64,000 nucleotides of DNA from a virus (taxonomy: Duplodnaviria > Caudoviricetes), in IMG/VR virus record IMGVR_UViG_3300028797_000014, positions 1,951 through 65,950 of that record. One strand, written 5' to 3'. Numbering within the stretch: position 1 is the stretch's first letter; each line of letters begins with the position of its first letter. The notes below the pieces were generated by a model. That model ran no database searches and had not been told where the DNA came from. It saw only the letters and a program-made list of their open reading frames with translations. The position numbers and the translations under genes were made by a program. Below, piece after piece: positions 17,129 to 63,788 of this stretch.

Positions 17129-17133
17129 TTTGA

Positions 17134-17162: not shown

Positions 17163-17171
17163 TACACTATA

Positions 17172-21056: not shown

Positions 21057-21074
21057 ATTAAGTCCTCCGTGTTA

Positions 21075-21082
21075 TATTTATA
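21075..21082 (-). promoter_or_regulatory. TATAAATA (module 2-type) upstream of sigma-1
   Basis: Minus strand reads TATAAATATAACACGGAGGACTTAATATG. Confidence 0.7.
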
Positions 21083-21191
21083 AACGTTTCGATTTGAAAC
21101 TCGCTGTTTCAATTTGAAGCATAAGTTAAATATAGTAAATGTTTATTTACATAACGCAGCTATAGAAATATTCCGGATTTCTTCATACGTT

Positions 21192-21201
21192 CTAATTATT
21201 A
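21192..21201 (+). promoter_or_regulatory. Module 1-type motif CTAATTATTA (tail fibre operon)
   Basis: Intergenic, before ATG 21247. Confidence 0.75.
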
Positions 21202-21246
21202 CGTAAGACATAGACCATACCGCTATGCTTAGGAGTTAAGAATTAT

Positions 21247-24200
21247 ATGGTTACAGGCGACGAAGAAATCAAGTGGGCCTACCTCATAGGTCCTTGTTTC
21301 CAATTAGAGAACACCGCAGGAAAGCCCCTCACCGGAGGCTACATCGAAGTTTACATAGCCGGTACTCGCGACAAGTATTACTGCGCGTCCGACTTCAACG
21401 GAACCCTCCACCCGTTCCAGATTCCCCTGGATTCGCTCGGTTCCAATATCGTTCTCGCTTCCCCCACCAACACTTACGACGTATACGTGTATAACAAGTT
21501 CGGTTCCCTCGTGATGAGCCGATACAACGTGATGTGTACGAACGGTTCCGCCGACATCTCGGTTACCGGTTTCACTTCCGTCATTTCCGATGGCACCCTC
21601 GACGTCTACGTTACGGGCAATTCCTTCATCATTTCCGCACAGGAACTCTGGGACGCGGTTTCCGGAATCGTCAACGACATCCAGTTCGTCTCCTCTACAC
21701 TCGAGACCGTATCAGGTTCGCTCGCAAACGATATCCAGAACGTCTCTTCTGCCCTCGACGATGTTTCTGGTATGCTGAGCGGCAAGAAGGACATACAGGT
21801 GCCCTACGGCGCGACAGGAAGCGCCATCCAGACCATTACCTCCATTACCCAGGACGAACAGGGTGTAATTCGCGTCCAGTATGGCGATATCGAGGCCCAG
21901 AACCCTCTTACTCCTGGCCAGTATGTTTCCATCGAGAACGACGTCATCACGGTCACCGGTCTCCAGCCGGAAGGCGACTATCTCGTATCCGGCGATTTGG
22001 AAGGTTACGCTACCGAACAGTTCGTTACGGCGTACGTAGAGGAACACGGCGGAAGCGACCAGGTTCAATCCGACTGGACCGAGACCGACACTTCCAGCAA
22101 GGCGTATATCCTCCATAAACCGCCCGAGAAACAGCTCGTGGCCGGTGCCAACGTATACCTTACCCCGACGGCAAGTTCTGTAATTATCAACGCCTACGGC
22201 GAATACCAGGCCGGTCAGAACATCAGTATCGACCCTGACTCCCATGCCATTTCCGTTACCGGTCTCCCGACTACGGAATTCGTTACCGGTTACGTAGAAT
22301 CCGCTATTTCCGGACTTACCGGCGCGGAGACCTACATCACTTCCAACGACGGAACGATTATAGTCAACCCGACCGTCGACGGACAGGTAACCTCGTTCGA
22401 CCTCAGCGTTTCGGGCGACGTGTTCGACAGCTGCCTCAAGGCTAACGGTCGTGACCAGTTCCTCAGTTCCTTCAACGACCTGCACTTCCAGGACCTCCAG
22501 TTCAAGAAGGGCGACGATATTTCCCTTAATTCCAGTGGCCAGGTGGTTATCAACAAGGAAGGCCGTTACTTCGTCTCCGTCAAGGGCGGATTCGCCAACA
22601 GGGCGCAGCGCAACGTGGACCTCACGGTCACCAGTACACTCGCCGATACGACCAAGAGATTCCAACTCGACCTAACTGTAACCGGTAACTACGATACCGG
22701 CGAAGGCGCCACGTATTTCGACAACTGCACGATAGTCAACGTCGTTTCCGCGCCGTATACTATACCCTGCAGGCTCACATACGACTATTCCACGTACGAT
22801 CCTTCCGTCGCCGTGTTCGACAAGCAGATTAACGTGTTCCGTATCGGTTCCGTAGGCGGTGACAGCCATGTCGTTCCTGTTACGGGCGCGACTTACGAAG
22901 CCGGTTGGGGAATCAATATCGTAGACGACGTCATTTCTGTGGACGCCAATATCATCCCTGACGTTTCCGGTATCGCGGAAGCCGCAGCGGCAGAGGCGAC
23001 TGAAGGACTCGCGAGTCTCTCCCAGGTTTCTTCTATCGTTCAGCAGGCCACTTACAACTTCGTTACCGAACCCTACGTGACGAGTTACGTCAGCACGCAG
23101 ATTGACAACGCGAAGGAAATCTACACTGTCTACTGGAACGTGTCCACTCTCGCGGAGATTATCCAGGCTTCCGTTCTCGACGCCAAGAAGGTATATCTCG
23201 GAGTATCCCACGTAACGGACGGTTGGACCGATATCCATTATGAAGTTCCTCTGACGAGACTCGTAACCCCGGGCCAGACGGTTTCCGAATGGTATGCCGA
23301 GTTCGTCGTGCCGTATACGGCCGCCGACAATTCTCCGAAGGGGGTCGTGTTCAAGGTCGACGCTACCAATACGTGGTCCAAGTATGAATTCGGTCAGGTA
23401 CAGGCTGACTGGTCCGTAACCGCTACGGACTCGGTGAGCTATATCCAGAACAAACCGGATCTCAGCGGCTTCGTTGATGAATCCTATGTCACAGGATACG
23501 TAGAATCTCAAGTTTCCTCTCTCGCAACCGAATCCTATGTAACCGCCTATGTCGACAGCCACGTTACGGGAGGTATTTCCCAGGTCTATGTAACCGGATG
23601 CGTTACCGGCAACGGTACAGAGAGTTCCCCGCTCGCCATCAATTATGACGATACTCTTCGTATCAATTCTATTTCGGATAATGTATTACCGATGTATAAC
23701 AACTATCCTCTCATTGAGGCTGATTCTGAACTCGCCTACTATTTGAGAACTGGTAATACATATCATACAGTGACGTTCACGTTCAGCGGTTTCACACCGT
23801 CTGCTTCCAGCAGGACTATCGTAGTTAACTTCGAAATGCTTAACAGCGAAGAATATACTTGGCTCGGCGGATACAGAGTTACGCTCGCTGCAAACGCTAC
23901 TTCCATGTCGGTACAAATCAACATGAGCAGTGCGCCCGATCTCTATAATGAGTTCGATCCTGCACACAGCTGGATTGCTACTCTTAACGTGGACAATGAA
24001 ACCTGGGATTCGATTTACTGCACAGAATGTACACATAACGCCCCTGTTGATACTACTGATTTCCTCTCCGTTAAGAACCCTCTACCAACTGCTGTTTCTG
24101 GCGATAATGGTAAGGTTCTCGGCGTTACAGATACGTCAGGTAGTATTGGATGGGTAGAAGCCGGTGGCGGTACCGAATACACTGCCGGTAACTACATCGA

Positions 24201-24687
24201 TATCACAAACGACGTAATCTCCGTTACTGGTCTTCAACCTGCCGGCGACTATCTCGTATCTGGTGATTTAGAGGGTTATGCTACAGATGAGTCCGTTACT
24301 GCCTATGTGGAATCCCAAGTTTCTGGTCTCGCTCCTCAGGTACAGTCCGACTGGTCTGTTACGGCGACTGACGCCGTTGACTACATCAAGAACAAGCCTG
24401 AAATCGTAGAGATGGATATCCTCCCTGTATCTGCCGGCCAGGGTATCGCAATCGACAACGTTTCCGGTACGATTTACATCTCCAATACGGTTACGGAAGA
24501 CTTCGTTACCGGTTATGTGGAATCTCAGGTTTCCGGTATCCCGACGTATTCCGCCGGCAACTGTATCAGTCTGGCTAGCGATATCGTTGCATGGACGACC
24601 ACTGCCGGTATCACGGATATCGTTTCCGTTGCCGCTTTGCCTGCAAGCCCGGTATCCTCTGTTATCTACCTTATTCCGGAGGCATAA
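21247..24687 (+). CDS. Long tail fibre/appendage protein with internal repeats
   Basis: Head-binding-type N-terminus; repeated Y.AG..I.I.NDVISVTG, GDYLVSGDLEGYAT, QSDW.....YI.NKP and E..VT.YVES motifs. Confidence 0.75.
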   Translation: MVTGDEEIKWAYLIGPCFQLENTAGKPLTGGYIEVYIAGTRDKYYCASDFNGTLHPFQIPLDSLGSNIVLASPTNTYDVYVYNKFGSLVMSRYNVMCTNGSADISVTGFTSVISDGTLDVYVTGNSFIISAQELWDAVSGIVNDIQFVSSTLETVSGSLANDIQNVSSALDDVSGMLSGKKDIQVPYGATGSAIQTITSITQDEQGVIRVQYGDIEAQNPLTPGQYVSIENDVITVTGLQPEGDYLVSGDLEGYATEQFVTAYVEEHGGSDQVQSDWTETDTSSKAYILHKPPEKQLVAGANVYLTPTASSVIINAYGEYQAGQNISIDPDSHAISVTGLPTTEFVTGYVESAISGLTGAETYITSNDGTIIVNPTVDGQVTSFDLSVSGDVFDSCLKANGRDQFLSSFNDLHFQDLQFKKGDDISLNSSGQVVINKEGRYFVSVKGGFANRAQRNVDLTVTSTLADTTKRFQLDLTVTGNYDTGEGATYFDNCTIVNVVSAPYTIPCRLTYDYSTYDPSVAVFDKQINVFRIGSVGGDSHVVPVTGATYEAGWGINIVDDVISVDANIIPDVSGIAEAAAAEATEGLASLSQVSSIVQQATYNFVTEPYVTSYVSTQIDNAKEIYTVYWNVSTLAEIIQASVLDAKKVYLGVSHVTDGWTDIHYEVPLTRLVTPGQTVSEWYAEFVVPYTAADNSPKGVVFKVDATNTWSKYEFGQVQADWSVTATDSVSYIQNKPDLSGFVDESYVTGYVESQVSSLATESYVTAYVDSHVTGGISQVYVTGCVTGNGTESSPLAINYDDTLRINSISDNVLPMYNNYPLIEADSELAYYLRTGNTYHTVTFTFSGFTPSASSRTIVVNFEMLNSEEYTWLGGYRVTLAANATSMSVQINMSSAPDLYNEFDPAHSWIATLNVDNETWDSIYCTECTHNAPVDTTDFLSVKNPLPTAVSGDNGKVLGVTDTSGSIGWVEAGGGTEYTAGNYIDITNDVISVTGLQPAGDYLVSGDLEGYATDESVTAYVESQVSGLAPQVQSDWSVTATDAVDYIKNKPEIVEMDILPVSAGQGIAIDNVSGTIYISNTVTEDFVTGYVESQVSGIPTYSAGNCISLASDIVAWTTTAGITDIVSVAALPASPVSSVIYLIPEA

Positions 24688-25871
24688 TGTCCTTATATTT
24701 GGGAAATACAAAGCTCGGACAAATTTATCTCGGTTCCACAAGGATATCGGAGATGTATCTCGGTTCGACGAAGATATTCTCAGCGGCACCGGTTCAGTAT
24801 CCTTACCTGCTTATGGAATTCAATTCCGGGTATACGCCGACTACCAGCATTCTGCATAGTGTGTATAGATCCATCTGCGAATGGGTACAGGTGACGTCGA
24901 GCCCCAACGTATGGAAGCTGGAGATTCACAACTGGGGACAGCCTCAGGAACAGATGGGCTGGGGGATACCGGTGCTCTTCTGCAGTAATACCGACGGTTC
25001 CACCAGTTATCTGTCAAACGTGCCGTGTAAGCTTGCCGGAGGCGATTTATCCATACCTATCGGCGGTTATTACTGCCAGTCTATGGACCGTACGTTCTCT
25101 AATGCTACGGGACTTACAGAAATCAGCGACATTATACAGTGTACTACCCTGATTAATGTCAACGGTACTTTCAGCGGCTGCACGAACTGTGCTTCCGGCC
25201 AGTATGACATGTACGACTATTTAAGCACGTATAATCTGGGGATAACAAACCATTCGGGCACGTTTACCGATTGCGGTTCCGATACCCAGACGGGTCTGGA
25301 CGAACTGGACCAGATTCCTACCGGATGGGGCGGCAATATGGCTCCTCCTGCTTCCTATATAACTGGTACCAGGACGAGAATTTATTCGAATTACGACGCG
25401 TGGAATTTAGGCAATACACATTCGGATATCTTTGAGAACCCGTACGGTATGTCCCTCTTCACGCAGGTCTCCGTATCTACATACGCAGGCGTGTCTATGA
25501 ACAGGTCCCGTATAAAGGCGATAAACGGACTCGGTACTACCAAGGGGACTTATTCGCTGTATTTCTACCCGTGTTTCGCCCAGTTTAACGGCACAGGTTC
25601 GTCATCTACGATAAAGTGGTGCTATACGACTACGGGCTACAACGGCATGCTTACTATCAATCAGGGCAATACGGACATGCCTGGTACGCTCGACTACAGC
25701 ACGTACGGCACGTTCGCGAATGAATTTGGTTCATACAACTCGAGTGATAACGTATACTTCATATTCCTGGTCACGAACGTTCCGATAGACCAATGGAGTG
25801 GTCTCAGCGACGCTTACGGCGTACTGTACAACGGTAACTTCAGGGATACGGACTTCTGGTATTTATTCTAA
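24687..25871 (+). CDS. Tail-associated protein with DUF285/BspA-like segment
   Basis: Start ATG 24687 (MSLYLG...); shares F..CG..T..G..EL.QIP..W motif. Confidence 0.6.
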   Translation: MSLYLGNTKLGQIYLGSTRISEMYLGSTKIFSAAPVQYPYLLMEFNSGYTPTTSILHSVYRSICEWVQVTSSPNVWKLEIHNWGQPQEQMGWGIPVLFCSNTDGSTSYLSNVPCKLAGGDLSIPIGGYYCQSMDRTFSNATGLTEISDIIQCTTLINVNGTFSGCTNCASGQYDMYDYLSTYNLGITNHSGTFTDCGSDTQTGLDELDQIPTGWGGNMAPPASYITGTRTRIYSNYDAWNLGNTHSDIFENPYGMSLFTQVSVSTYAGVSMNRSRIKAINGLGTTKGTYSLYFYPCFAQFNGTGSSSTIKWCYTTTGYNGMLTINQGNTDMPGTLDYSTYGTFANEFGSYNSSDNVYFIFLVTNVPIDQWSGLSDAYGVLYNGNFRDTDFWYLF

Positions 25872-25876
25872 CAGGG

Positions 25877-25886
25877 CTAATTATTA
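25877..25886 (+). promoter_or_regulatory. Module 1-type motif CTAATTATTA
   Basis: CTAATTATTAGG 9 nt before ATG 25896. Confidence 0.75.
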
Positions 25887-25895
25887 GGTAGAAAT

Positions 25896-26714
25896 ATGAT
25901 AACATACGGAAGCGACATTGTTACCGACAACAGCGGGTTCTGGCTCCAGAACTCCATCGGTACCTCTTTACCCGCTGGCGTTCTCAGGTTCAAGTTCGAC
26001 GAGCCGTGGAATCCAGCCGATCAGTTCCCTAACTACACGTGGGTATGCGTGGACATGTATAACGGCGTATGGGACTGTGTCGGTATATCCGGCAATGTCG
26101 ACGGGTATTTCCAGTCACTCGGAAATTCTTACGTGAAGTTCATGGTAATCGACGGCAACCTGGACGGCGTCACCAGCATGGACAGGATATTCATGGACGT
26201 AAGGGACAAGATGACTTACGCATGCATACCCAACATACCTGACGTTACGTCGATGACGAACGCGTTCATGGATACCGGCGTAAGCTACCTTTACATGGGA
26301 GGTCTCGAGAGCTTAACATCGATGACCAGCCTGATAAACAACAGTACGGTACCGGGAGGCACTCTCGTGTTAGAAGGCACTTCCTCTCTGACGTCCATCG
26401 AGAACGCGTTCCAGTACAGCAATTTCGGCAGTTTCTATATCAGCGATACTTCCAATCTCGTCAATATCGACGCCGCATGGGCCGGTTGCGGGTACCTGAC
26501 CGTGATACCTACGATAGACGTTACGAACGTTACCTCCATGTCGGAGACGTTCCAGAACTGCATTAACGTAAACAGCGGCATAACAGACCTGTACAACAGG
26601 GCTTCGACAAAGGAAATACCGGTAATATACCATAGCGGTACGTTCCTTCACTGCGGTGAGAACAGTCCTACGGGTTCGATAGAACTCGCCCAGATACCTT
26701 CGGACTGGAAATAA
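25896..26714 (+). CDS. DUF285/BspA-like surface-repeat protein
   Basis: VTSMDRIF, VTSMTNAF and NVTSMSETF repeats. Confidence 0.7.
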   Translation: MITYGSDIVTDNSGFWLQNSIGTSLPAGVLRFKFDEPWNPADQFPNYTWVCVDMYNGVWDCVGISGNVDGYFQSLGNSYVKFMVIDGNLDGVTSMDRIFMDVRDKMTYACIPNIPDVTSMTNAFMDTGVSYLYMGGLESLTSMTSLINNSTVPGGTLVLEGTSSLTSIENAFQYSNFGSFYISDTSNLVNIDAAWAGCGYLTVIPTIDVTNVTSMSETFQNCINVNSGITDLYNRASTKEIPVIYHSGTFLHCGENSPTGSIELAQIPSDWK

Positions 26715-26726
26715 CAAGGAGTTTAT

Positions 26727-27539
26727 ATGAAGAACAATACAATCGTCACCAACATGACACAGAACTTCACCGACGCCGAGAAGAAGCAGGCGCGTTCCAA
26801 CGCCGAGGCTTCCAAGGTCAGGATTCTCACGGGCGGAAGCAGCCAGGGCCCTACTTACGCCACTGCCGATACCCTCACACTCTCCAACTCGTCGAACACT
26901 ATTTCCGCCGATACGGGGAGCGGTAGCAATATCTATACCGGTACGGTGCCTATTCCGGGCAGCGGCGACGCCGGCAAGGCCCTAATCGTGTCCGATAACC
27001 TCGGCAATTACACCTGGGCTAACCAGAAGAGCTATACCGCCGGGAACAACATCTCCATCTCTGGCACTACCATATCGGCTCCTAACGTCGTCAAGCACGA
27101 CCCGTTATGGTTCCATCTCGACGCCGCCGGACAGGCAGGACAGGATAACCCCTATACGGGCGAAGTAAATCTCGCCGGGGGCGACCTCACGTTCAAGCTA
27201 GAGTTCTACAAGAGAAGTTCCACGACCCATTCCAACCTCATCGACTTCTATCTGAAGAACAACAACCCAGGCGACATGTGGTTCGACATCACGTACATGA
27301 CCGCCGATGACGCCACGTTCTCCGGCTACTTCACCTACACAGGCAATACCACCAACTACGTGTCGTTCCAGTCGGACGTCACTGGCGGCGCCGGCGTATG
27401 GTTCCCAGAGGCGGAGAACCCGGCCTACAGTTCCATGGAGATCAACGTCTGGTATTCTAAGAACAATATATTCAAATACTGCCACTTCAACTGTACCAGG
27501 AAACACTACGTCATGGTGAGCAGCTACTACTACGCATAA
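26727..27539 (+). CDS. Tail-associated beta-rich protein
   Basis: FTDAEKKQARSN start and YTAGNNISISG repeat shared with fibre proteins. Confidence 0.55.
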   Translation: MKNNTIVTNMTQNFTDAEKKQARSNAEASKVRILTGGSSQGPTYATADTLTLSNSSNTISADTGSGSNIYTGTVPIPGSGDAGKALIVSDNLGNYTWANQKSYTAGNNISISGTTISAPNVVKHDPLWFHLDAAGQAGQDNPYTGEVNLAGGDLTFKLEFYKRSSTTHSNLIDFYLKNNNPGDMWFDITYMTADDATFSGYFTYTGNTTNYVSFQSDVTGGAGVWFPEAENPAYSSMEINVWYSKNNIFKYCHFNCTRKHYVMVSSYYYA

Positions 27540-27548
27540 GGAGGAAGC

Positions 27549-28247
27549 ATGGCTACACTATTCACATACGGAAACAAGCTAATGAGCTTCGGGAACAACA
27601 CGTTCCTGGGTATAGGCGAACCGGCGCCCGTTCCTCCAGAACCGGAACCGATAGACTGCGTTACCCTCGGAACGCTGAAATGGGCATCGAGCAACCTTGC
27701 TGTACAGCTGGATTCCTCGATGTGCTCCGCTTACGACAACGTTACGAACAACGGCGTCAACATGGGCAAGCAGTATTACTACAACGTCAACAGCATTTCC
27801 ACCCTCAACTCGCTCTATACAGGGTGGAGGGTCCCTACTTACGACGACTGGATTAACCTCATGGCATACTGCGCCTATACCTATGCGGGTTACCATTATG
27901 AGGGAGGCAGTTACATAGATACGCCTTACGGCAAGTTCTACCCTCCTGTGACAATCGACTCTTCGACCAAGGGTTACAACTACGGCAGCATGTTAAAGAC
28001 CACTGGTATCGTATGGCCGACCTCGAGCTCCGGCAATACGAACGATTCTGGTTTCAGCGCGTTACCTACCGGCGAATGCTGGTCGGGCGGCACCGATAAC
28101 GTAGGTACGGCGTGGTACCTGATGAACGACAGTACGTACGGCGTATTCTGGATAGGCGATACAATCTACGACAATAATACAAGGTTAATGAATTACCAGT
28201 ACATGAGCACCGACAGTTTCACCGTAAGGCTCGTAAAGGACGTGTAA
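27549..28247 (+). CDS. Fibrobacter succinogenes major paralogous (FISUMP) domain protein
   Basis: LG...W...NL, GWRVPT..DW..L, G..LK...W, ..SGFSALP.G and C-terminal VRLVKD motifs. Confidence 0.8.
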   Translation: MATLFTYGNKLMSFGNNTFLGIGEPAPVPPEPEPIDCVTLGTLKWASSNLAVQLDSSMCSAYDNVTNNGVNMGKQYYYNVNSISTLNSLYTGWRVPTYDDWINLMAYCAYTYAGYHYEGGSYIDTPYGKFYPPVTIDSSTKGYNYGSMLKTTGIVWPTSSSGNTNDSGFSALPTGECWSGGTDNVGTAWYLMNDSTYGVFWIGDTIYDNNTRLMNYQYMSTDSFTVRLVKDV

Positions 28248-28248
28248 T

Positions 28249-28566
28249 ATGGAAGAAGTAATAAATGCCTTGGTAGGCAACATGCCGGCGTGGGGAGTAC
28301 CTATCGTACTCTGCTTCGTATTCTATTTCAAGATAAAGTCCGAGAGGAAGGACACAGCGTCCAGGCGAGACACCGACAGCCTCGAGATCCACGACAGTCT
28401 ACAGAAGCACACGTGGGAAATATCCAGGCTGAAGGACGACATGGCCCTCCACAACACGTTGATGGAGGACATAAGGACGACGGTGGACGCCCTCAACGTA
28501 TCCACGGCCAAGCTGTCCGTCACAGTGGACAACCTCAACAACGTGATAAGGGAGATGAAGAAATGA
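28249..28566 (+). CDS. Single-TM plus coiled-coil protein, putative holin (paralog of 47896..48153)
   Basis: One N-terminal hydrophobic segment followed by a heptad pattern. Confidence 0.5.
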   Translation: MEEVINALVGNMPAWGVPIVLCFVFYFKIKSERKDTASRRDTDSLEIHDSLQKHTWEISRLKDDMALHNTLMEDIRTTVDALNVSTAKLSVTVDNLNNVIREMKK

Positions 28567-28670
28567 CGGAGGCGTTCATTCACGGACTCGTCTGCGTCCT
28601 CTTCGTCGTCGGAATACTTCTCTTAGGTTACCTATTGTTCGACGAGGACGACTGGGAGGGGAGGAGATGA
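28563..28670 (+). CDS. Small membrane peptide, 35 aa
   Basis: MTEAFIHGLVCVLFVVGILLLGYLLFDEDDWEGRR; ATGA overlaps at both ends. Confidence 0.55.
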   Translation: MTEAFIHGLVCVLFVVGILLLGYLLFDEDDWEGRR

Positions 28671-29092
28671 ACATAATCGGTTATTCTCCTACGTGCCGTT
28701 ACCACAAGGTCAACGGCCTTTACGTACTGGACGAGGACGTCTGGATAGACTTTGTTCTGAACGGCGTAAAGTTCAGGATAAGGGTGGACAGGGGAGGTAT
28801 GACTGACGGTCTCTCCGTGCCAAGGATATTCAGGTGGTACCTTCCCGACTGGGACGATTCCAATCCGCTCTACAACATTTCCGGTATATGCCACGACGGA
28901 TGTTACGGTTCCGAGGTAGTATGCAAGGACATGGCCGACGAGCTATTCTACAGTGGGCTCGTGCTCGCGAATATAAAGCCCTCCAAGGCCAGGGTGGCAC
29001 GCTGGGCTGTAGAGAACCTGGCCGGTCTCCATTACGGCTCCAAACACGACGATTTCGGTATTTCCGAATATGTCTCCCTCTCCACGCTGTAA
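28667..29092 (+). CDS. DUF1353-domain protein
   Basis: GGMTDGLSVPR.F.W, ICHD..Y and ADELF motifs. Confidence 0.8.
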   Translation: MNIIGYSPTCRYHKVNGLYVLDEDVWIDFVLNGVKFRIRVDRGGMTDGLSVPRIFRWYLPDWDDSNPLYNISGICHDGCYGSEVVCKDMADELFYSGLVLANIKPSKARVARWAVENLAGLHYGSKHDDFGISEYVSLSTL

Positions 29093-29121
29093 CTATTTAT
29101 TACTTCACGACGAGGAGTAAT

Positions 29122-29394
29122 ATGGAAACGTGCGACAACTGCGGCCCGGAATGCGGCCATCTCGAAGAATGCCTAGAATCGCGTTATGAGGCGATGTTGA
29201 GGCGGTGCAATATAGATATACCCCCTAAGCAAGAAACGAGCCCAGAGGCGCCTCTAAACGCGAAAGAACAAGGTATAGGGGAAGGAATAGGGTTCCAACG
29301 ACTCAGACGTATAACCGGCTACCTGGTAGGCGACGTATCTAGGTGGAACGACGGTAAATTTGCGGAATTGAAGGACCGCGTAAATCATGGATAA
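29122..29394 (+). CDS. Stand-alone NrdD C-terminal-like (glycyl radical) peptide
   Basis: RBS GAGGAG; GEGIGFQRLRRITGYLVGDVSRWNDGKFAELKDRVNHG plus a Cys-rich N-terminus. Confidence 0.7.
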   Translation: METCDNCGPECGHLEECLESRYEAMLRRCNIDIPPKQETSPEAPLNAKEQGIGEGIGFQRLRRITGYLVGDVSRWNDGKFAELKDRVNHG

Positions 29395-29398
29395 AGGA

Positions 29399-29428
29399 AA
29401 TGCCGTAGAGAGTAATCCCTACGGCATT
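29399..29428. terminator. Terminator hairpin at the right end of module 1
   Basis: AATGCCGTAG-N10-CTACGGCATT between convergent genes. Confidence 0.7.
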
Positions 29429-29449
29429 GTTATAACGTGCAAATGAAAT

Positions 29450-29656
29450 TTATTCTTCCTTTGAGGCTATGATCTTGTCGATACGGTTCTGTATGCGCTT
29501 CAGGCCTATCCTCTGGCCTCCGTAGACGTGCCAGTCTCTCCTGTCCTCCAGGTTGCGTATCTTCACGCTCGTGCCCTCGCAGTTGCGGCCGTTCCTGAAT
29601 ATCGTGCAGTTGGTAGCCTCGTACCAGTAGTTCCTATATGTACCGACCTTAATCAT
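29450..29656 (-). CDS. Early basic protein 'X', copy 1 (68 aa)
   Basis: RBS AGAGGGA; near-identical to 63789..63992. Confidence 0.75.
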   Translation of the reverse strand: MIKVGTYRNYWYEATNCTIFRNGRNCEGTSVKIRNLEDRRDWHVYGGQRIGLKRIQNRIDKIIASKEE

Positions 29657-29664
29657 GGTTTGTC
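29463..29664 (+). repeat. Direct repeat copy 1 (about 200 bp, may extend further)
   Basis: Matches 63799..64000 (offset 34,336) except two synonymous substitutions. Confidence 0.95.
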
Positions 29665-29677
29665 CCTCTTTACCTAT

Positions 29678-29706
29678 AATATAGTTAAATACGGTCCGTT
29701 TGTAAG
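29678..29706 (-). promoter_or_regulatory. Sigma70-like promoter CTTACA-N17-TATATT for gene X
   Basis: -35 at 29701-29706, -10 at 29678-29683. Confidence 0.6.
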
Positions 29707-29857
29707 CCCATGGCTACTAGTTATTCAGTTTCAGATACCCCTGCCTATAAGAATACCCCCATCGATTTCTCCGGGAGCGTCGACTACCGACATGTGTCGT
29801 GAATTTGTCCTCGAGAGCGTTTATAATTTCGGGGACATATTAGTTATAGCAATCGTT

Positions 29858-30130
29858 TCAGACATCCACATTACGTATCTGTTCCTGCCTAGTCATTATC
29901 TGCAGCTTCTCGTAATACTCGTCCATGTTCCGATTGCCGGTCATTATGGCCTCGTAGTCGTCTACGGATATTTCCGTATAGGTGTTGCTGCCTATCTCGT
30001 TGACGTAGTAGTGGCGATGTCTGTCGAGTATGTCGGCGATGGTTATCAGCCTGTTCCTCGCAGTGGCGAGCATTGTAGAATTATAGAACATCAGATGGTC
30101 TGTCCTTTCTCGAGTAGTTCGATTGTCCAC
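29858..30130 (-). CDS. Hypothetical protein
   Basis: ORF downstream of the DUF4422 gene in the same orientation. Confidence 0.45.
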   Translation of the reverse strand: MDNRTTRERTDHLMFYNSTMLATARNRLITIADILDRHRHYYVNEIGSNTYTEISVDDYEAIMTGNRNMDEYYEKLQIMTRQEQIRNVDV

Positions 30131-30822
30131 GGGAATACTGGCATATTCTTCGATATGTACAACCAGTAAGCTGTTGACAGTCTCTCGCTGAGGAACGACA
30201 ATACCCTTGCCTGATATTCCACGTCGTTATTACGGCCCTGATTGTCTTTATTGTAGTTGCCGTTCTTGACGCGTTCTACCATGTCCTCGTATGTCTTGAC
30301 GCCCATCATTTCAAGCGTCTTATCAAGCACGGCAATAAGGAAATTAGAATAGTCCTTGAGCTGAGCTACTGTACATGTGCAGATATTGTACGGGATAAGG
30401 ACGTGACCGTTAAGGACTTGTTCTACGTGCTGTACGAGGTGAGGATACAGTTCCTTAATGGCCTTTCCCATTACTGACAAATCGTTCAGATTATGGTAAT
30501 AGTCATACTGTGCAGCTAAAGTCTCGGTGAATGTCATCGGTTGAGGAATAGCAGTCCTGTCGTAAAGGTCCCGAGCGAAACGGCGCCTGTAGTGGTTGAG
30601 CTGTATCCATTTGCCGTTATCATCGTCAGACGTATAGAACTTGAGGATTTCCGGGAAAGCGGCGACTTCACTGTAAAGTCTATGGTCGCGTTCCGACTTC
30701 GTATTGTCGAATACAGTAAAGCCTTCCGTAGAAGGCCATATCTCGTTTACTTTGTCAATATCATGCGTAATGATGTATTTATCCATGTGAATACCTGTAG
30801 ATACTTTATTGGACACACCCAT
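30091..30822 (-). CDS. DUF4422-family (glycosyltransferase-associated) protein
   Basis: IQLNHYRRRF, QY.Y.H...DL, PYNI and YQARVLSFLSERL motifs; start may be ATG 30786. Confidence 0.8.
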   Translation of the reverse strand: MGVSNKVSTGIHMDKYIITHDIDKVNEIWPSTEGFTVFDNTKSERDHRLYSEVAAFPEILKFYTSDDDNGKWIQLNHYRRRFARDLYDRTAIPQPMTFTETLAAQYDYYHNLNDLSVMGKAIKELYPHLVQHVEQVLNGHVLIPYNICTCTVAQLKDYSNFLIAVLDKTLEMMGVKTYEDMVERVKNGNYNKDNQGRNNDVEYQARVLSFLSERLSTAYWLYISKNMPVFPWTIELLEKGQTI

Positions 30823-30963
30823 TATGAAATTGGAAAAGTAATAAAAGGTTTGGTGTGCCCGATAAAGTACCTACCCTGGCCAGGAGGAAAATAACAAAAA
30901 GAAGAACCAGGATAGGTACCGCAACCAGATATGAAGTGAATAGAGTTCTCCGGTCGCTGTATT

Positions 30964-30973
30964 TAATAATTAG
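30964..30973 (-). promoter_or_regulatory. Module 1-type motif CTAATTATTA inside the replication cluster
   Basis: Overlaps the SSB-like gene stop and points toward the DUF4422 gene. Confidence 0.55.
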
Positions 30974-31518
30974 TTGTCTGTCGTCTTAGGTGCCTGGTCG
31001 GCATAACCCTTAGTGAGCTCGTATTCGATACACGGCTTGCCGTAGACACGGAGATCGTAGTCAGACAATTCAGAAACTTCGATGTCCTGCTTGTCGCTTT
31101 CCTGGATAATGGAAGTCACGGAGTTGAATACCTTCCCGTCGTCCTTGACATCTACGCGGATCTGGAGAAGGCCAAAGAAGTCCATGAGCTTTCCGTCCTT
31201 GTCGTACATCATTTCGGCAAAGTCTTTCGGGCTAGTAAGCGGGCGGATGTTAGCCCACATTTCCGGGAGCTTGCTCTTATCGGTAAAGCTGAAAGTGCAA
31301 GGGCGTGTAGACACGTGAACATGCTGACCTTCATTGTTAACTACGTCGAATACGAAAGAAATCAATTCCTTAGGCTTTGTCGGATTTCCGTCTACGTCCT
31401 TGGCGTATTTCTCGTCTTGCATAGACTTGCGGAGCATGATGAGTCGTCCGTTATATGCACCAGCCTTAGTAATCTGTGCGAATGCTTCGTTAGTACCACG
31501 TTCTTCAAATTTAATCAT
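30970..31518 (-). CDS. Putative ssDNA-binding/replication accessory protein
   Basis: Follows polA; beta-rich OB-fold-like pattern with an acidic C-terminal part. Confidence 0.45.
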   Translation of the reverse strand: MIKFEERGTNEAFAQITKAGAYNGRLIMLRKSMQDEKYAKDVDGNPTKPKELISFVFDVVNNEGQHVHVSTRPCTFSFTDKSKLPEMWANIRPLTSPKDFAEMMYDKDGKLMDFFGLLQIRVDVKDDGKVFNSVTSIIQESDKQDIEVSELSDYDLRVYGKPCIEYELTKGYADQAPKTTDN

Positions 31519-31579
31519 AATTTATTCCTTATTTTAAAGTATTTGTAACCGTCATTGATTACGTTATTAAATATAGAAA

Positions 31580-33565
31580 TTATTTATCCTCCTGTTTGAC
31601 TTTAATTTTTAATCTGAATTTCTCTTCCTCTTTCTTCTCCCAGTGCGTTTTGGCTTTCTTACCACTGTTTATCAGCCGCACGAACTTATCCGTATCTTCG
31701 GATTCCTCACATCGCAGTACGTTATGTTCGAGTACGAACGGTTCGCCGGCATAAAGCAAGTCAGAACCAGTACACTTGTGTGCTATCTCGTCCATTATCG
31801 CCTTCAGCCTGTAACCGTCATCGATACTGCCAGCTTCTATCCATACGGCGTCGTGCACTGGGGCTATTACCTTCAATCCTTCTGCCTTACAACGCCTGAG
31901 CACTTGCCTGAGGATATAGGCGCCGAAGCTCTGGATAGGCTGGTTACCCAATGTGGTAGCGGAAGCACAATGATACTTCGTGAATATGGGATACCCATCT
32001 GGAAGAATCCATACGCACCTGTCCGTAATACCACCGTCGCCCTTGTCCATCGCATTAATATAAATCTTCTGGTTGGACTTTGCCCTGTTATATGCTAGGT
32101 CCAGACTGTGCCGCATCTTGACGGCTTCAGTCTGCGTAATCTTACACCTGTCAGCTAGCCTCTTAGATCCCGCGCCGTATTGCCAAGCCAACGTAAACGT
32201 CTTTGCCTTCTTTCTGATACCTGCCTGCTCCTTGGTAAGGTCCTTCTTCTTGATACCTTCCGGCAACAGCCCCATCTTGATGGCGTTAAAGATATACGGG
32301 TCTTCTGCCTTATACAGTTCCTGGTAAGTCTCGTCGCCGTACAACAGGCCCATCAAGGCTGTTTCCTGGCTGTGGTAGTCGACCTCTATAAGGAACTTGC
32401 CTTCGGGAGGAGTCATCACGCCTCTCATATACCTTGTCCATTGAGGTACGTATCCTTCAGCGGGTTGACCCTGCCATCTTTGCGTCTTTGCCTTGTTAGG
32501 ATTCAACGTCGGCACGTAGACACGGCCGTCACGTATATTCCTTGTCCAGTTCTGCCACTTGTGGTCCTTGTACTTATTCGTAGTGATACCGTTAAGGCCC
32601 TTCTCGACGTGTTCCTTCCAGTAGAACCACCATTCCATGAAATTGGCGTCGTTCTCTCTTGGGTCGTCCCTAAAATCGTAGTTCTTCAATATGTCCGCTG
32701 ACAGTTCCCAGCCGCCGTTAGCCGTCTTGGGCCAGTCCTTTATGCCCTGTTCCCTGATGAATTCGTCGGTATATTTCTGTATCGCCTTCAGGGACTTGTG
32801 CATGTTCCCTTTCTTGTCTACCTCGAATATGCCCGGGAACTTCGCGTTCATGGCCATCTGGAACGCCTTCATTTCTATCTGGGCTCCGTCTTGCATCCAC
32901 TGCATAGCCTCCGTAGATACCGGTATCCCGTTGTTGCATATCCACCTAGACAGCTGCATGTCCTCGGACAGCTTCAGGATATACTCGTCCCACGGCAGAA
33001 GCCTAGAAGTATATATCTCGCCGACGTTCATAGAGCAGAACGGGAACAGGAAAGCACCGTGCTCGTATTCCTCATACCTGGATTTCCAGTAGCCTTCCAG
33101 CATGTGGAGATACTGCACGTCGTGGCAACAGTACGTGAGGATTTCTTTCTCGTGACCCTCTGTCTCGTCGTCTATACAGTATTGCCTGCACCTTTCCTTC
33201 TCCTCGCTGTCGATTTCGATACCGAGGAATTCCTTGCATGCGTTAGCCAAAGCCAGCTGTTTCTGTCTTATAGCCGTCGGAGTGTAATCGTCGTTCATTA
33301 TATAGCCGAAATAGCCGGTATCGAATACGTTGATTCTGGTAGTGTCCAGGCCCAATTTCTCCAGACACTTTGCTTCCGCTATCTCGTAGAAATGGGCAAG
33401 CCAGAGAGCGTCCAGATTGCGATTAAACCAGTCTTTAAAGTCCTGCCTCTGGATTTCGTCCTGTAGCCACCAGCCTCTTGTGTCCTTTCCGTCGTTTATG
33501 GCCACGCAGTACAGTTTGTAATCCTGCGAGGCGTTGAATTCGAAGTCTATTGCTATTCGTTTCAT
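31580..33565 (-). CDS. polA: Family A DNA polymerase with 3'-5' exonuclease
   Basis: ExoI IAIDFEF, ExoIII YCCHDV, motif A EVDYHSQE, motif B RKKAKTFTLAWQYG, motif C VHDAV; ATG 33565. Confidence 0.92.
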   Translation of the reverse strand: MKRIAIDFEFNASQDYKLYCVAINDGKDTRGWWLQDEIQRQDFKDWFNRNLDALWLAHFYEIAEAKCLEKLGLDTTRINVFDTGYFGYIMNDDYTPTAIRQKQLALANACKEFLGIEIDSEEKERCRQYCIDDETEGHEKEILTYCCHDVQYLHMLEGYWKSRYEEYEHGAFLFPFCSMNVGEIYTSRLLPWDEYILKLSEDMQLSRWICNNGIPVSTEAMQWMQDGAQIEMKAFQMAMNAKFPGIFEVDKKGNMHKSLKAIQKYTDEFIREQGIKDWPKTANGGWELSADILKNYDFRDDPRENDANFMEWWFYWKEHVEKGLNGITTNKYKDHKWQNWTRNIRDGRVYVPTLNPNKAKTQRWQGQPAEGYVPQWTRYMRGVMTPPEGKFLIEVDYHSQETALMGLLYGDETYQELYKAEDPYIFNAIKMGLLPEGIKKKDLTKEQAGIRKKAKTFTLAWQYGAGSKRLADRCKITQTEAVKMRHSLDLAYNRAKSNQKIYINAMDKGDGGITDRCVWILPDGYPIFTKYHCASATTLGNQPIQSFGAYILRQVLRRCKAEGLKVIAPVHDAVWIEAGSIDDGYRLKAIMDEIAHKCTGSDLLYAGEPFVLEHNVLRCEESEDTDKFVRLINSGKKAKTHWEKKEEEKFRLKIKVKQEDK

Positions 33566-33696
33566 ATTCGTCCTCAAATATAGTAAAATTTAATTATGGC
33601 ACGTAAGGCACGCATGTAAAATCCTGTTTATATTGTTATCATATTAAATTAAATATTATATTTTTTACTTCTTCTCGCGCGTAACTTGAAAAAAAG

Positions 33697-33802
33697 TGCG
33701 TACCCTGCGTACCCTAGGTCAAAATTGGCCTTTTTGAGCAAATTTAAGCGATTTTGGGTACGCATTTAAGTGTGTACCCAATGCGTACCCTGCGTACCCT
33801 AG
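33697..33802. repeat. Iteron-like TGCGTACCC array, putative replication origin
   Basis: Copies at 33697, 33706, 33782 and 33791, inverted copy at 33756, variant at 33771; AT-rich tract at about 33625-33695. Confidence 0.75.
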
Positions 33803-35646
33803 AGCTCGAAATCGTTACAAATTCCGGATTTCTCCTCTTTTTGGAACATTTTTATTGATATGCCCGGCCATACGCGCAGCCTCTTTCCATCGCCTAGCTT
33901 CTTGTGCACGCACTTGTACTTGAGCTTGGAAAGGTGCTCGACAAGGTCGGAATAGGCTACGTTTATTTCGTAGCGTTCCATATTATTGTCCTTCCATTCC
34001 TTCCACGTGTCGCGCAGCTGTGTATCGGTAATTTCGCCGCTACCGAGAATAAGGCAGGACGCAAAGAAATCGTCGAATACTATCTTGTTCGTCTCGACAC
34101 ATTCTACCTGGATTCTTTCTTGCATGAAGTCCGGGAGGATAAGGTCGCTATTCCTGGGACAATATGTCTTGTAGTCTTTACGGCATTTGTACAAGAAATA
34201 TGGTAGTTCTTCCTTGAGCTTGACTTCCCAGCTCGGGTCGCCGGACGACAATAACGGAGTACCGTCAGCGGAAAGCAAGATGTTGCCTTCGGCGTCACAT
34301 TTGTACAGGATAGCCTGCGCGGATTTAGGCTTCTTGATATTGAACAAGACTAAACGAGATACTTCGTGTTCCGCATCCGTATCGATATCCAGCTTCACGT
34401 TGCCGTTGGCCCATATATGGCCCCTGAACGAAGCCGTGAATGAATCCCTACCCTTGTATTCAACGTCTGCCAGGTCTCCACCAGTGGCCGTATGTATAAT
34501 CTGCGACTTCAGCATCATCGTATTCTTGTTATCGCCAACGGTTACCAACTGCTTGTTCCAAATCTTGGCGAAACCGAACTGGTTATTAAGAGACTGTTTC
34601 TGAAGCGCCTGTGTAGCTTGAAGTAAATGGCTGAAAGCTGCTCTGAGCATAGCGGACTTACCGCTTCTGCCGTGAGGGTCGTACATGTAGACTAACTGCC
34701 TGCTCGTATTCTCGGTCTCGTAGACCTGCCAGATGGCCGCCCTGAATACCGCGCATTCTTCATCGTTCTCAAGTCTTTCAGAAAGTGCGAGGTCCCATGT
34801 CGGACATTCACCCTTCGCTATAATCTTGTCCAGTTCGAGCTTCACGAACGCGTATTCTTCCGCCTTATACGAATAAGGCTTCGGGTGTTCGCTGAGTCTC
34901 TTGGCATATCTGCCGCAGAGTAACGGTAAGTTGACGTTGAATGTGCGCACGAATACGTCCTTGCTGTGTAACGTATATACGTCTGTGAATTCGGTAATCC
35001 TCCAGCAGTCCTCGTCGTTCTCGGGAGGTATGGCCTTGTAGTTAAGGCCTATGTCGCCGAAGTGCTCGAGGATCCAGCTGCTGCAACAGTCCTGGAATTC
35101 TATTGCGAACCTGTTCGTAGGACCCCACGGGAAAGAACCCGGAACCTTTTGCTCGAACGGGCCGGAAGATACCATGTCGTTGAGCTTGTCTAGTATCATC
35201 TGCTTGTATTTCATGAACAGTGGCCACAGAACGTTGTCGAGTATTTCGGGGCTAGCGAGCTGTACCAGTCCGTCTACGCCTTGCTTGAGGTGTATGACCG
35301 AGCGGTCCTTAAGCACCCAGTACATCGACGACGTATTTCCGCCGTCGCTCGAGGCCAGCAGGAAGTTATCGCCTATTTCCTTGTCGAACTTGTTCGAGTT
35401 TAGACCGAGCAGGTCCTGCTGCTTCAGGATTATGGACCTGTCGATGCCACCGCGTGCTACGATAGTCTTGCGGTATTTCTTTCTTAAGGCGGCAAGTGCT
35501 TCTCTGAGTTCGTCAGTCCTATTCTTTAACGCTATATAATCTTTCGCGACAATCCCGTCCAGGATTTCTTCGTCTTCCTTGCCGAGATCGATGTCTTTAA
35601 GGTATTCTTCTATTGGCTTTACGCCGGACTTTCTAGTTATCGCCAT
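33799..35646 (-). CDS. SF3 (D5/P4-type) helicase, possibly primase-helicase
   Basis: Walker A GRSGKS, LVTVGDN and TATGGD..DVEYKGRDSFT; probable ATG 35646 (track ORF extends to 35721). Confidence 0.8.
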   Translation of the reverse strand: MAITRKSGVKPIEEYLKDIDLGKEDEEILDGIVAKDYIALKNRTDELREALAALRKKYRKTIVARGGIDRSIILKQQDLLGLNSNKFDKEIGDNFLLASSDGGNTSSMYWVLKDRSVIHLKQGVDGLVQLASPEILDNVLWPLFMKYKQMILDKLNDMVSSGPFEQKVPGSFPWGPTNRFAIEFQDCCSSWILEHFGDIGLNYKAIPPENDEDCWRITEFTDVYTLHSKDVFVRTFNVNLPLLCGRYAKRLSEHPKPYSYKAEEYAFVKLELDKIIAKGECPTWDLALSERLENDEECAVFRAAIWQVYETENTSRQLVYMYDPHGRSGKSAMLRAAFSHLLQATQALQKQSLNNQFGFAKIWNKQLVTVGDNKNTMMLKSQIIHTATGGDLADVEYKGRDSFTASFRGHIWANGNVKLDIDTDAEHEVSRLVLFNIKKPKSAQAILYKCDAEGNILLSADGTPLLSSGDPSWEVKLKEELPYFLYKCRKDYKTYCPRNSDLILPDFMQERIQVECVETNKIVFDDFFASCLILGSGEITDTQLRDTWKEWKDNNMERYEINVAYSDLVEHLSKLKYKCVHKKLGDGKRLRVWPGISIKMFQKEEKSGICNDFEL

Positions 35647-35761
35647 CTTTGTCCTCTGTATCCTCTTCTTGTTTACCGTACATTTCTTTCCATACGTCCC
35701 ACACGTTCTTCTCATCCACATACGGACCGAATTTGCCTTGTATCATATATTCAAACCTATT

Positions 35762-35798
35762 AAAAAGGACCCCATACAGTGCCGCCTGTATAGGGTCC
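35762..35798 (-). terminator. Intrinsic terminator upstream of the helicase gene
   Basis: Minus strand GGACCCTATACAG-GCGGCA-CTGTATGGGGTCC-TTTTT. Confidence 0.75.
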
Positions 35799-35895
35799 AG
35801 TGTTAACAAAAGAAACTTGTTTCACTACTAGCGGCAACTGAGTGATGATTCAAATATAGAATAAATTTCTGACCGCCCGGGAAACTGTAAAAAAG

Positions 35896-35919
35896 TCTGA
35901 ATATTTGAGAATATTCAGA
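35896..35919. promoter_or_regulatory. Operator-like inverted repeat TCTGAATATT-tgag-AATATTCAGA
   Basis: Perfect 10-bp arms in the divergent promoter region. Confidence 0.5.
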
Positions 35920-35964
35920 TTATTCTTCGCGCGCGCGAAACGTAAAAAAATTTTTTCTATATTT

Positions 35965-35974
35965 CTAATTATTA
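35965..35974 (+). promoter_or_regulatory. CTAATTATTA (module 1-type) upstream of the sigma-2 operon
   Basis: Immediately after CTATATT (35957-35963), before RBS GAGG and ATG 35996. Confidence 0.7.
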
Positions 35975-35995
35975 ATTGATTAAGTGAGGTTAAAC

Positions 35996-36607
35996 ATGAC
36001 TGAAGAACATAAGCAGCACCTTTCAGACACCTGGAGTATGGCCAGACGCCGTAAGCGTGCTAGGGAAATGAAAGAATTCTGGGATAAGCATAGGGACGAG
36101 CTCGTGATAGCTAACCGCGAGACTGACAACAGGAAGCACATCGACCTGAAGGAATACAAGCAGACCGAATTCGGAACCGGCGAAAGGGATCGTGAAGGCT
36201 ATCGTGACTACCAACGCGAAGTACAGCGCAAGTATCGTGCCGACAAGAATTCGAAGACAATGCAATATTTTAGGGAATACGCGAGGAAGAAACACGCCAA
36301 GATTCGCGAAGACAAGATCGCCCTTATACAGAGTAACCTTGACGTACCGAGCCATGTAGTCGGCAAGTACGTGGTTACAGCCGACGGGAGATTCTTCAAG
36401 ATTTCTACCTGCCAGCAGAGTTTCCCTGCTTATATTGCGGTCGACGGCGTACTGATACCGTCGTTGAAGGTAATGGAACTTTATTTCGGATGCGAGACCG
36501 AAGTGGATATTGACCCATCGGTAGACGGTATCGGATATGACCACGTATCGGACGAGATGTTCAACAGAATCGTAGAGGAGTATTATGGCACGTCCCTCCA
36601 AGAATAA
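35996..36607 (+). CDS. Hypothetical basic protein, possibly degenerate homing-endonuclease-related
   Basis: ATG 35996; K/R-rich helices and a NUMOD4-like YVVTADGRFF segment. Confidence 0.55.
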   Translation: MTEEHKQHLSDTWSMARRRKRAREMKEFWDKHRDELVIANRETDNRKHIDLKEYKQTEFGTGERDREGYRDYQREVQRKYRADKNSKTMQYFREYARKKHAKIREDKIALIQSNLDVPSHVVGKYVVTADGRFFKISTCQQSFPAYIAVDGVLIPSLKVMELYFGCETEVDIDPSVDGIGYDHVSDEMFNRIVEEYYGTSLQE

Positions 36608-37139: not shown

Positions 37140-37602
37140 GCAATTGACAAAACAGAAATACATAGAGAAATATGGTATAGAAGGATGGGAACGTAAGCTA
37201 TTAGCTTCTCGGAGATGGAATAAACTAAATAAGCAGAGACATAATGATGCTAGTCGAAAATGGAAAGTAGAGAATGCCGAAAGATATAAAATCTATTCAC
37301 AGCAATGGAATAAAGATAATAGTGCTTTGCACATGGAATTATCTAAAACGACATATAGGGCATACTGTAAGAAAGACGAGTATGAACTAATTGAGAATTA
37401 TGAATTGGCCAAAGCTGATAACTTTGAAGGTTGGCATTGTCACCATAGGCTAGAACTGCACACGGATTTCTCGTTAAGATACACGGTAAGTTCTCTAAAG
37501 AAGTTAGACTTGTATTACAATAGACCTGCCTCTGAGCTTATATTCTTGACGCAGGCGGAACACAGTAGAAGACATCGCATAGCAAGGTGGATAAATGAAT
37601 AA
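37120..37602 (+). CDS. HNH endonuclease
   Basis: WHCHHRLE...YYNRPASELIFLT..EH...H motif. Confidence 0.75.
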   Translation: MKIIRSKQLTKQKYIEKYGIEGWERKLLASRRWNKLNKQRHNDASRKWKVENAERYKIYSQQWNKDNSALHMELSKTTYRAYCKKDEYELIENYELAKADNFEGWHCHHRLELHTDFSLRYTVSSLKKLDLYYNRPASELIFLTQAEHSRRHRIARWINE

Positions 37603-39042: not shown

Positions 39043-39050
39043 TATAAATA
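39043..39050 (+). promoter_or_regulatory. TATAAATA late promoter (portal operon)
   Basis: Exact T4 late consensus upstream of the portal gene. Confidence 0.8.
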
Positions 39051-63785: not shown

Positions 63786-63788
63786 CTA

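Follow-up and report, generated by a model that had tools for sequence, protein, structure and literature searches.

Three described systems are among the closest to the arrangement reported here. The Bacillus phage SPO1 runs a sigma cascade, gp28 and then gp33/gp34, which proceeds one way and lies within one genome. In the case of phage P2 and P4, a satellite without virion genes, the late promoters are reciprocally transactivated by Ogr and Delta, which are zinc-finger proteins working with sigma-70. In T4 late transcription, the sigma factor gp55 reads the word TATAAATA (PDB 7D7C/7D7D; PMC7892883, PMC2988020), with deep pockets that take A-12 and A-8 and with the pocket residues N13, H95, Y97 and T99 for A-12, A-9 and A-8 (PMC7892883). 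Here we analyze a stretch of viral DNA of 64,000 nucleotides (the window), which comprises bases 1951-65950 of the 65,950-bp virus record IMGVR_UViG_3300028797_000014; all coordinates are those of the window unless the record is named. Its two halves, which very probably are two phages and are termed A and B below, each encode a gp55-like late sigma factor (sigma-1 in A and sigma-2 in B), and each sigma unit has, behind its early promoter, a copy of the late promoter word typical of the other half. We tentatively interpret these cross copies as sites through which the phages activate each other in a co-infected cell.

Two late sigma factors and their promoter words

Both sigma proteins match PHROG 234 (phrog_234, "late sigma transcription factor"; Table 1) and can be aligned to T4 gp55 in the region of its HAYITQACFNAF motif segment. 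The best PDB sequence match of sigma-1 is T4 gp55 (7d7c_F, residues 56-156), the 7d7c_F matches of both sigmas being weak. The structural models of both are bundles of five to seven helices and match folds of sigma region 2; 7d7c_F ranks second for sigma-1 (pLDDT 82) and is among the matches for sigma-2. These results bear out an earlier reading of the same DNA made with no database searches (hereafter the sequence-only reading), which had taken both genes for sigma factors. In sigma-2, Y97 and T99 of the gp55 pocket are retained and the N-terminus resembles that of gp55; sigma-1 keeps Y97 and has T replaced by Y at position 99. A Pfam scan found no Sigma70_r4 match in either protein, and lacking region 4, they should need no -35 element at their promoters. 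Searches with hidden Markov models of each sigma family recovered no second sigma-like open reading frame in either half and, among the B proteins, no homolog of sigma-1. Neither gp33 nor the gp45 clamp had a PHROG match among the ~60 proteins scanned, a set that left out the smallest open reading frames.

Two short words recur before the transcription units of the record. There are 10 exact copies of CTAATTATT against 0.54 expected from shuffles, and seven of ATAAATATA against 0.59, whereas one-mismatch variants of both words show no enrichment, indicating that the words are strict. Intergenic DNA makes up 3.9 kb of 66 kb (6%), yet it contains nearly all of the copies, all oriented toward the next gene. 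The positions that the sequence-only reading had assigned to both words, to the cross copies and to the CTATATT elements were all recovered, and a tenth CTAATTATT at 30965-30973 (minus), absent from its list, was found in the B half; the counts, together with the low chance of each cross copy (0.4-3%), establish that the motifs are non-randomly placed. The CTAATTATT at 3339 ends 6 nt upstream of tRNA-Ser (3354), which marks it as a signal of transcription and not of translation. Upstream of this word nothing is conserved in 84 distinct sites of relatives, and so it appears to lack a -35 element. By their form both words are best described as T4-late-type, -10-like elements at predicted positions -13 to -6. 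In an inferred alignment that sets them as in T4, TAATTATT and TATAAATA have T-13, A-12, A-8 and T-7 in common and differ in the central three bases.

Stand-alone relatives indicate which sigma goes with which word. In the A-type genomes G002, G001 and G003 there are 7, 8 and 10 copies of CTAATTATT, respectively, at syntenic late units including those before virion genes, and TATAAATA has no systematic placement. The sigma-1-type gene is single in G002, the only one of the three that was searched whole. In the B relatives, NATAAATA precedes the portal and tail genes, and the only sigma gene is of the sigma-2 type. Since stand-alone A and B genomes thus hold one sigma and one late word each, sigma-1 in all likelihood pairs with CTAATTATT and sigma-2 with TATAAATA. 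The sequence-only reading had entertained two wirings. Only the first fits, with each sigma driving the module it belongs to and its motif also placed before the sigma gene of the partner. The second, with autoactivation of each sigma and control of the opposite module, was rejected given the one sigma and one word of the stand-alone genomes. However the cross copies are interpreted, small rumen podophages carry gp55-like sigmas, and no fewer than two strict words, CTAATTATT and TATAAATA, serve as their promoters, which makes these useful as orthogonal parts.

Partner words in front of the sigma genes

On the A side, the TATAAATA core of the cross copy occupies 21075-21082 on the minus strand, and on the B side, the CTAATTATTA of the first cross copy (box 1) occupies 35965-35974, 21 nt upstream of the ATG at 35996. 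These distances to the start codon (18 nt on the A side; 21-22 nt on the B side) are typical of each word's own promoters. B carries a second copy of the A-type word (box 2), which stands before a gene for a glycosyltransferase-like DUF4422 protein, and all three cross copies lie at the head of units containing glycosyltransferase-type genes. Under Markov models of AT-rich intergenic DNA, the chance of finding TATAAATA in the 190-nt spacer is 1.5-3.3% (0.5-1.2% for ATAAATATA) and that of finding CTAATTATT in the 274-nt spacer is 0.4-0.7%, giving a joint chance of ~1e-4. No A-derived DNA was seen flanking the cross copies.

Box 1, in the form CTAATTATTA directly after the early -10, is present in three B lineages, namely the window, the L032/L044/L045 lineage and L050, across which sigma-2 identity ranges from 33 to 70% (~70% to the window in L032/L044/L045 and 33% in L050). 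At the box-2 site, just past a 182-aa gene, CTAATTATTA occurs in the window, L032 and L052, and (C/T)ATAAATAAT in L050 and L033; the flanks are unalignable in all five. The B-clade copies are the exact 10-mer CTAATTATTA in 6/6 cases. At the B structural operons CTAATTATT never takes the place of NATAAATA, which sets it apart as a separate promoter class and not an interchangeable variant, and in distant B genomes it is found at control level only. We conclude that, within one B clade, CTAATTATTA has the marks of a promoter class that is distinct and under selection, and the B-side copies are probably functional.

The reciprocal placement put forward in the sequence-only reading is therefore conserved on the B side in three lineages; on the A side conservation is weak and confined to the nearest relatives. 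There, L037, L038 and L039, whose sigma-1 is 77% identical, have CATAAATATAT at the cross position, and (C/T)ATAAATATA before sigma-1 is found in the nearest A relatives only. The A-side cross copy is much weaker evidence than the B side. The sequence-only reading would have given up its proposal had homologous modules found alone lacked the cross motifs; they are present in stand-alone relatives, and their occurrence is thus independent of the join between the halves.

Structure of the record

The 66-kb record very probably represents two separate rumen phage genomes and not one genome with two modules. Its circle without the end overlap is 65,875 bp, the sum of 31,539 and 34,336 bp. PHROG scans of the record proteins found the terminase, portal and phrog_578 genes twice each; the coat gene was found by PHROG in the second half and paired with a first-half gene by BLASTP. 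The A/B paralogue pairs have 22-40% amino-acid identity, and the coat proteins are of P22/HK97 size (~390 aa). The A-type genome G002 (35,570 bp, 127-bp terminal repeat, 100% completeness) is colinear with just the A half. The A relatives reach at most 35.6 kb and the longest contig among the best 120 of ~1,300 B-portal relatives is 38.4 kb, both families being otherwise seen solely as genomes of 30-38 kb. The case for two phages is built on these genome sizes, the completeness of each half and the stand-alone relatives.

The halves share a segment of ~390 bp (94-100% identity) that includes a 168-nt identical run (29538-29705 in copy 1). It is the sole near-identical DNA between them and lies at both joins, and its two copies differ by 18 mismatches and small indels. 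This segment implies that A and B exchange DNA and meet in one cell; to judge from its sequence, it is real and a sign of recent exchange between the two phages. The exact 75-nt overlap of the record ends (record 1-75; window 63926-64000) falls inside the 168-nt identical run. In IMG/VR, the record is rated as having direct terminal repeats and as 100% complete, a rating that is misleading because the 75-nt repeat lies in a segment common to two genomes. The same situation arises in metagenomic composite contigs, where two circular genomes with a common repeat are traversed as one "circular" contig. As in those, the length of the record is that of A plus B, and a single identical run of 168 nt accounts for the two joins as well as the end overlap; the difference is that the shared segment here is real and its two copies are not identical. 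This matters when "dual-capsid" phages are counted, as a record labeled "complete, direct terminal repeats" is in this instance most likely two genomes.

An improbable alternative is a cointegrate, in which A and B form one 66-kb replicon whose sigmas are in a mutual positive-feedback loop coupling two virion programmes. One crossover within the shared segment would produce exactly such a structure, and it would accord with the one contig with its terminal overlap, with the IMG/VR class and with the assembly graph, which is a figure-8. Against this, each half is the complete genome of its own family, none of ~150 contigs related to either family exceeds 38.4 kb, 66 kb being about twice any relative of either, and the coats are P22/HK97-sized. 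Moreover, the terminal overlap sits inside a 168-nt repeat too long for 150-nt reads to span, other assemblies break at this repeat, and the boxes are present in relatives without the partner half. In those other assemblies the exact sigma-1 and sigma-2 proteins are on separate contigs of 31,653 and 34,450 bp, respectively, which have both ends within the 168-nt run and ~114-nt overlaps. We rejected these re-assemblies as proof of separate molecules and regard them as neutral, as a k=141 figure-8 graph yields them under either topology. The coupling of two virion programmes in one genome that the sequence-only reading had drawn from the locus is thus not supported: very probably, the record is made up of two phage genomes, each complete, that meet in the segment they share.

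A and B are probably distinct P22-like podophages of the same rumen host that occasionally recombine. A nucleotide search gave no near-DNA match among isolated phages, and portal searches returned solely P22-like portals that are 22-25% identical. Gene X, which lies in the shared segment, has no match in IMG/VR. Proteins of the tail-fiber region in both families contain PF09603 (Fib_succ_major) domains (ENA gene tables; L041 894-1472), which together with the G+C content of 48% hints at Fibrobacter or Bacteroidota as the host. The second gene for the large terminase subunit has a frame change inside its Walker A motif (52844-52967), where YLRAGR is followed by a stop and then by SGSGKS in a frame 7 nt out of register. 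This may be a real defect of the B strain, a population variant or an error.

Possible cross-activation and its alternatives

The explanation that we favor, held at somewhat less than even confidence, is that the cross copies are cross-activation sites between co-infecting phages. Each phage would have its single gp55-like sigma gene started by an early promoter of the host type (TTTACA-N17-cTATATT or, as an extended -10, TGcTATATT), and the sigma would then steer the host RNA polymerase to a strict -10-like word without a -35 element, sigma-1 reading CTAATTATT(A) and sigma-2 reading (T/C/A)ATAAATA(TA). Each sigma unit would offer, between its early -10 and its ribosome-binding site, one promoter-grade copy of the other phage's word, and B would offer its second such copy before the DUF4422 gene. 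As these promoters need the word alone, the partner's sigma holoenzyme would be expected to fire the cross copies in a cell with both phages. A phage losing the polymerase pool to its competitor's sigma could then still express its own sigma and the linked glycosyltransferase genes. We observed the motifs and how strict they are, the homology of the two sigmas, stand-alone relatives with one sigma and one motif each, and the retention of the cross copies; the pairing of protein and word, the firing of the copies and mixed infection as their setting are inferred. More guardedly still, two co-circulating phages of unrelated appearance may each keep the rival's late word before their own sigma gene, such that in a mixed infection the sigma that wins the host RNA polymerase would switch on that of the rival, a form of reciprocal transcriptional eavesdropping. 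A literature search found no paper describing such reciprocal placement of a partner's word before sigma genes.

Several points weigh against cross-activation. The A-side box is kept only in the 77%-identical subclade, in which the whole leader is 83% conserved, and elsewhere in the A family its position is occupied by an A/T-only tract (e.g., TATATATAAT), which might act at the RNA level, for instance as a ribosome standby site. Stand-alone A genomes contain 1-4 intergenic copies of TATAAATA in any case. The presence of the box in stand-alone B phages through deep divergence would require that B and A-type phages have long and frequently infected the same cells. It is conceivable that B itself or the host encodes a reader of CTAATTATT, and the figure-8 graph and the re-assemblies leave room for a physical cointegrate.

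The A/T-only tract and the scattered TATAAATA copies also speak for the view that the cross copies, especially the A-side box, have no function and are chance occurrences in AT-rich leaders or leftovers of recombination, as do the exchange of DNA between A and B seen in the shared segment and the fact that the exceptions were sought after the fact in the sequence-only reading. We regard this as unlikely in view of the joint chance of ~1e-4, the two exact 11-mers in B, the retention of box 2 in three lineages despite flanks diverged beyond alignment and of box 1 at 33% sigma identity, and the lack of accompanying A-derived flanks.

It is possible, if rather doubtful, that the boxes serve each phage alone as a second promoter class or a regulatory site, read by some further factor of phage or host origin or, weakly, by the sigma of the same phage in positive autoregulation. 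Box-bearing A-type and B-type phages do occur stand-alone, three diverged lineages have retained box 1, and at an orthologous site box 2 stands in for a canonical late promoter. That one sigma partly reads both words is conceivable given the bases T-13, A-12, A-8 and T-7 that the words share, the second and third of which are those taken by the gp55 pockets; on the other hand, a sigma-2 that reads both words should mix them at structural operons, which is never seen, and the B copies are exact in 6/6 cases and not weak degenerate variants. A non-homologous reader with the exact 10-nt specificity of the A family would be a large coincidence. The A-type sigma acting in trans would be the most economical reader of CTAATTATTA, since a reader within B would need the specificity of the A sigma without kinship to it, and a host reader is disfavored because it would leave sigma-1 without a target in the A phages.

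The boxes are found solely in B lineages with a 203-aa gene heading the sigma operon, a point in favor of own-phage function; the 203-aa protein, however, has no recognizable DNA-binding or sigma fold. We tried and rejected it as the CTAATTATT reader: it has no Pfam or PHROG match, yielded nothing useful from the Atlas, is restricted to B and has no A homolog. An hhalign match at 23% is limited to the N-terminus of an HNH endonuclease. The family is small, with seven representatives in B-type phages only, and a pattern scan found no further members in IMG/VR or JGI contigs. The sigma hidden Markov models and the search of the 203-aa family gave no candidate reader protein common to A and the box-bearing B clade only.

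Should cross-activation by the partner's sigma be correct, it would extend co-infection cross-talk, which is mostly known for satellites and their helpers, to a case between two complete phages. It would also represent an orthogonal sigma/promoter wiring and a simple system for studying competition over the host RNA polymerase.

Leaders and neighboring features

The element T(G/A)CTAT(A/C)TTTA precedes all sigma-1 and sigma-2 homologs examined, and the early promoters of A and B are of the same type. The inverted repeat in the sigma-1 leader has an equivalent with 15-nt arms in L037 and L039 and no other copy in the window; covariation was uninformative because the alignment of three sequences was out of register. 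Close to early promoters, a GAATATTCAG element showed no significant enrichment. In the distant B relatives L033 (7463-7485) and L035 (7519-7540), the sigma start lies ~12 nt after a TGCTATATT early -10 and lacks a ribosome-binding site, which suggests a leaderless or near-leaderless sigma mRNA. A strong terminator-like hairpin at 35767-35798 (minus), with 13 pairs followed by a T-run, separates the early promoter at 35853 from the primase ATG at 35721 and may be an attenuator of the B early leader.

Two further leaders have conserved stretches. A hairpin with a CAGCGTGGG-like loop at 17181-17231, 3' of the second CTAATTATT and before the scaffold and coat genes, is also found in many A relatives and may be a conserved 5' leader element. 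The 140-nt leader from box 2 to the DUF4422 start includes a stretch (30823-30895) that is ~78% conserved with L032 890-960 (...GGGTAGGTACTTTATCGGG...) and has no Rfam match; no Rfam families were found in 16500-37500.

The glycosyltransferase and sigma-1 genes of A belong to one transcription unit on account of their start/stop overlap, and the glycosyltransferase genes at 19550-20575 and 37595-38716 are paralogues with 28% identity. The proteins of 104 to 111 aa encoded at 2994-3329 and 38713-39027 are, with 40% identity, the best-conserved A/B paralogues after gene X and occur throughout the B relatives; their size close to that of gp33 and the position of the B copy in the sigma-2 operon make them a candidate co-activator. 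Next to sigma-2, a 160-aa protein (37120-37602) has ~75 C-terminal residues that recur at 42-58% identity at varied positions in A-type and B-type relatives (L004, L021, L018, L002, L006, L035), twice in L002 and in L035, which suggests a mobile, homing-endonuclease-like domain. Between the portal and scaffold operons of A, a 143-aa early gene (16679-17110, minus) encodes a DH..N..NLRW motif typical of HNH homing endonucleases, and the early promoter of this gene overlaps the CTAATTATT at 17119 in reverse complement.

Table 1. Coordinates of features in the window; genomes, genes and promoters are as predicted.
Feature	Position	Strand	Remarks
Phage A	record start to window 29450		~31.5 kb
Phage B	29665-63800		~34.3 kb
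Shared segment copy 1, A-to-B join	29451..29841	.	gene X, its early promoter, start of divergent gene
Shared segment copy 2, B-to-A join	63787..64000	.	continues to record position ~255
Sigma-1, phage A	20568..21056	-	162 aa, gp55-like; phrog_234 E 7.4e-6
Glycosyltransferase gene	19550..20575	-	phrog_7162 E 3.6e-23; start overlaps sigma-1 stop
A-side cross copy TATAAATATAA, B-type word	21072..21082	-	18 nt before sigma-1 ATG (21056)
Inverted repeat, 13 nt, hairpin or operator	21086..21118	.	between early -10 and TATAAATA box; fold z-score -1.8
CTATATT, host-type early -10 for sigma-1	21129..21135	-	
CTATATT, host-type early -10 of sigma-2 operon	35957..35963	+	
B-side cross copy (box 1) CTAATTATTAA, A-type word	35965..35975	+	before first gene of sigma-2 operon
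203-aa gene, head of sigma-2 operon	35996..36607	+	no Pfam/PHROG match
Sigma-2, phage B	36585..37139	+	184 aa, gp55-like; phrog_234 E 1.4e-6, Sigma70_r2 E 1e-4
Glycosyltransferase gene of sigma-2 operon	37595..38716	+	phrog_7162 E 5e-15
Box 2 CTAATTATTAA, A-type word in phage B	30963..30973	-	stop of gene 30970-31518, upstream of DUF4422 gene
DUF4422 (glycosyltransferase-like) gene downstream of box 2	30091..30822	-	PF14393 E 3e-15
A-type late promoter	3339..3347	+	before tRNA-Ser
A-type late promoter	5824..5832	+	
A-type late promoter	8858..8866	+	
A-type late promoter	14395..14403	+	before portal-1; syntenic in relatives
Two A-type late promoters (17119, 17172)	17119..17180	+	before scaffold and coat genes; doublet kept in relatives
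A-type late promoter CTAATTATTA	21192..21201	+	of 1146-aa gene 21247-24687; syntenic in A relatives
A-type late promoter	25877..25885	+	
B-type late promoter	39043..39050	+	before portal-2; syntenic in L032, L033, L035, L040, L050
B-type late promoter	43417..43424	+	
B-type late promoter, CATAAATA	50031..50038	+	
B-type late promoter	52074..52081	+	
B-type late promoter	54114..54121	+	
B-type late promoter	56274..56281	+	
B-type late promoter, CATAAATA	59110..59117	+	
B-type late promoter, AATAAATA	60575..60582	+	

Comparison with known systems

The late transcription of T4 is similar in that a small, region-2-only sigma is combined with a -10-like word of 8-9 nt, without a -35 element, before every late unit; phage B even uses the T4 word itself, and its sigma-2 has the gp55 N-terminal motif, Y97 and T99. 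However, T4 is a 170-kb myophage, whereas A and B are P22-like podophages of 31-34 kb, and T4 employs gp33 and the gp45 clamp, of which no homolog was found here among the ~60 proteins scanned. The sigma-1 word CTAATTATT is also new relative to T4, as is the placement of sigma genes behind the late word of a foreign phage.

The locus resembles SPO1 in that the gene of one phage sigma is preceded by a promoter for a different one. In SPO1 this occurs in one genome and in one direction, whereas here it concerns two sigmas of two self-complete phages and is reciprocal.

The P2-P4 pair is the nearest analogy to the proposed cross-activation, under which two replicons in one cell would likewise have late promoters that can be fired by the activator of the other. 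Two independent replicons that share a host are very probably present here, as seen in the complete halves, the exchanged 390-bp segment and the early promoters of the same type, and the cross copies show the sequence match and the promoter-like spacing at which the partner's activator would act. In contrast to P2 and P4, each partner here is a complete phage, sigma factors would do the reading, and it is the sigma genes that are targeted.

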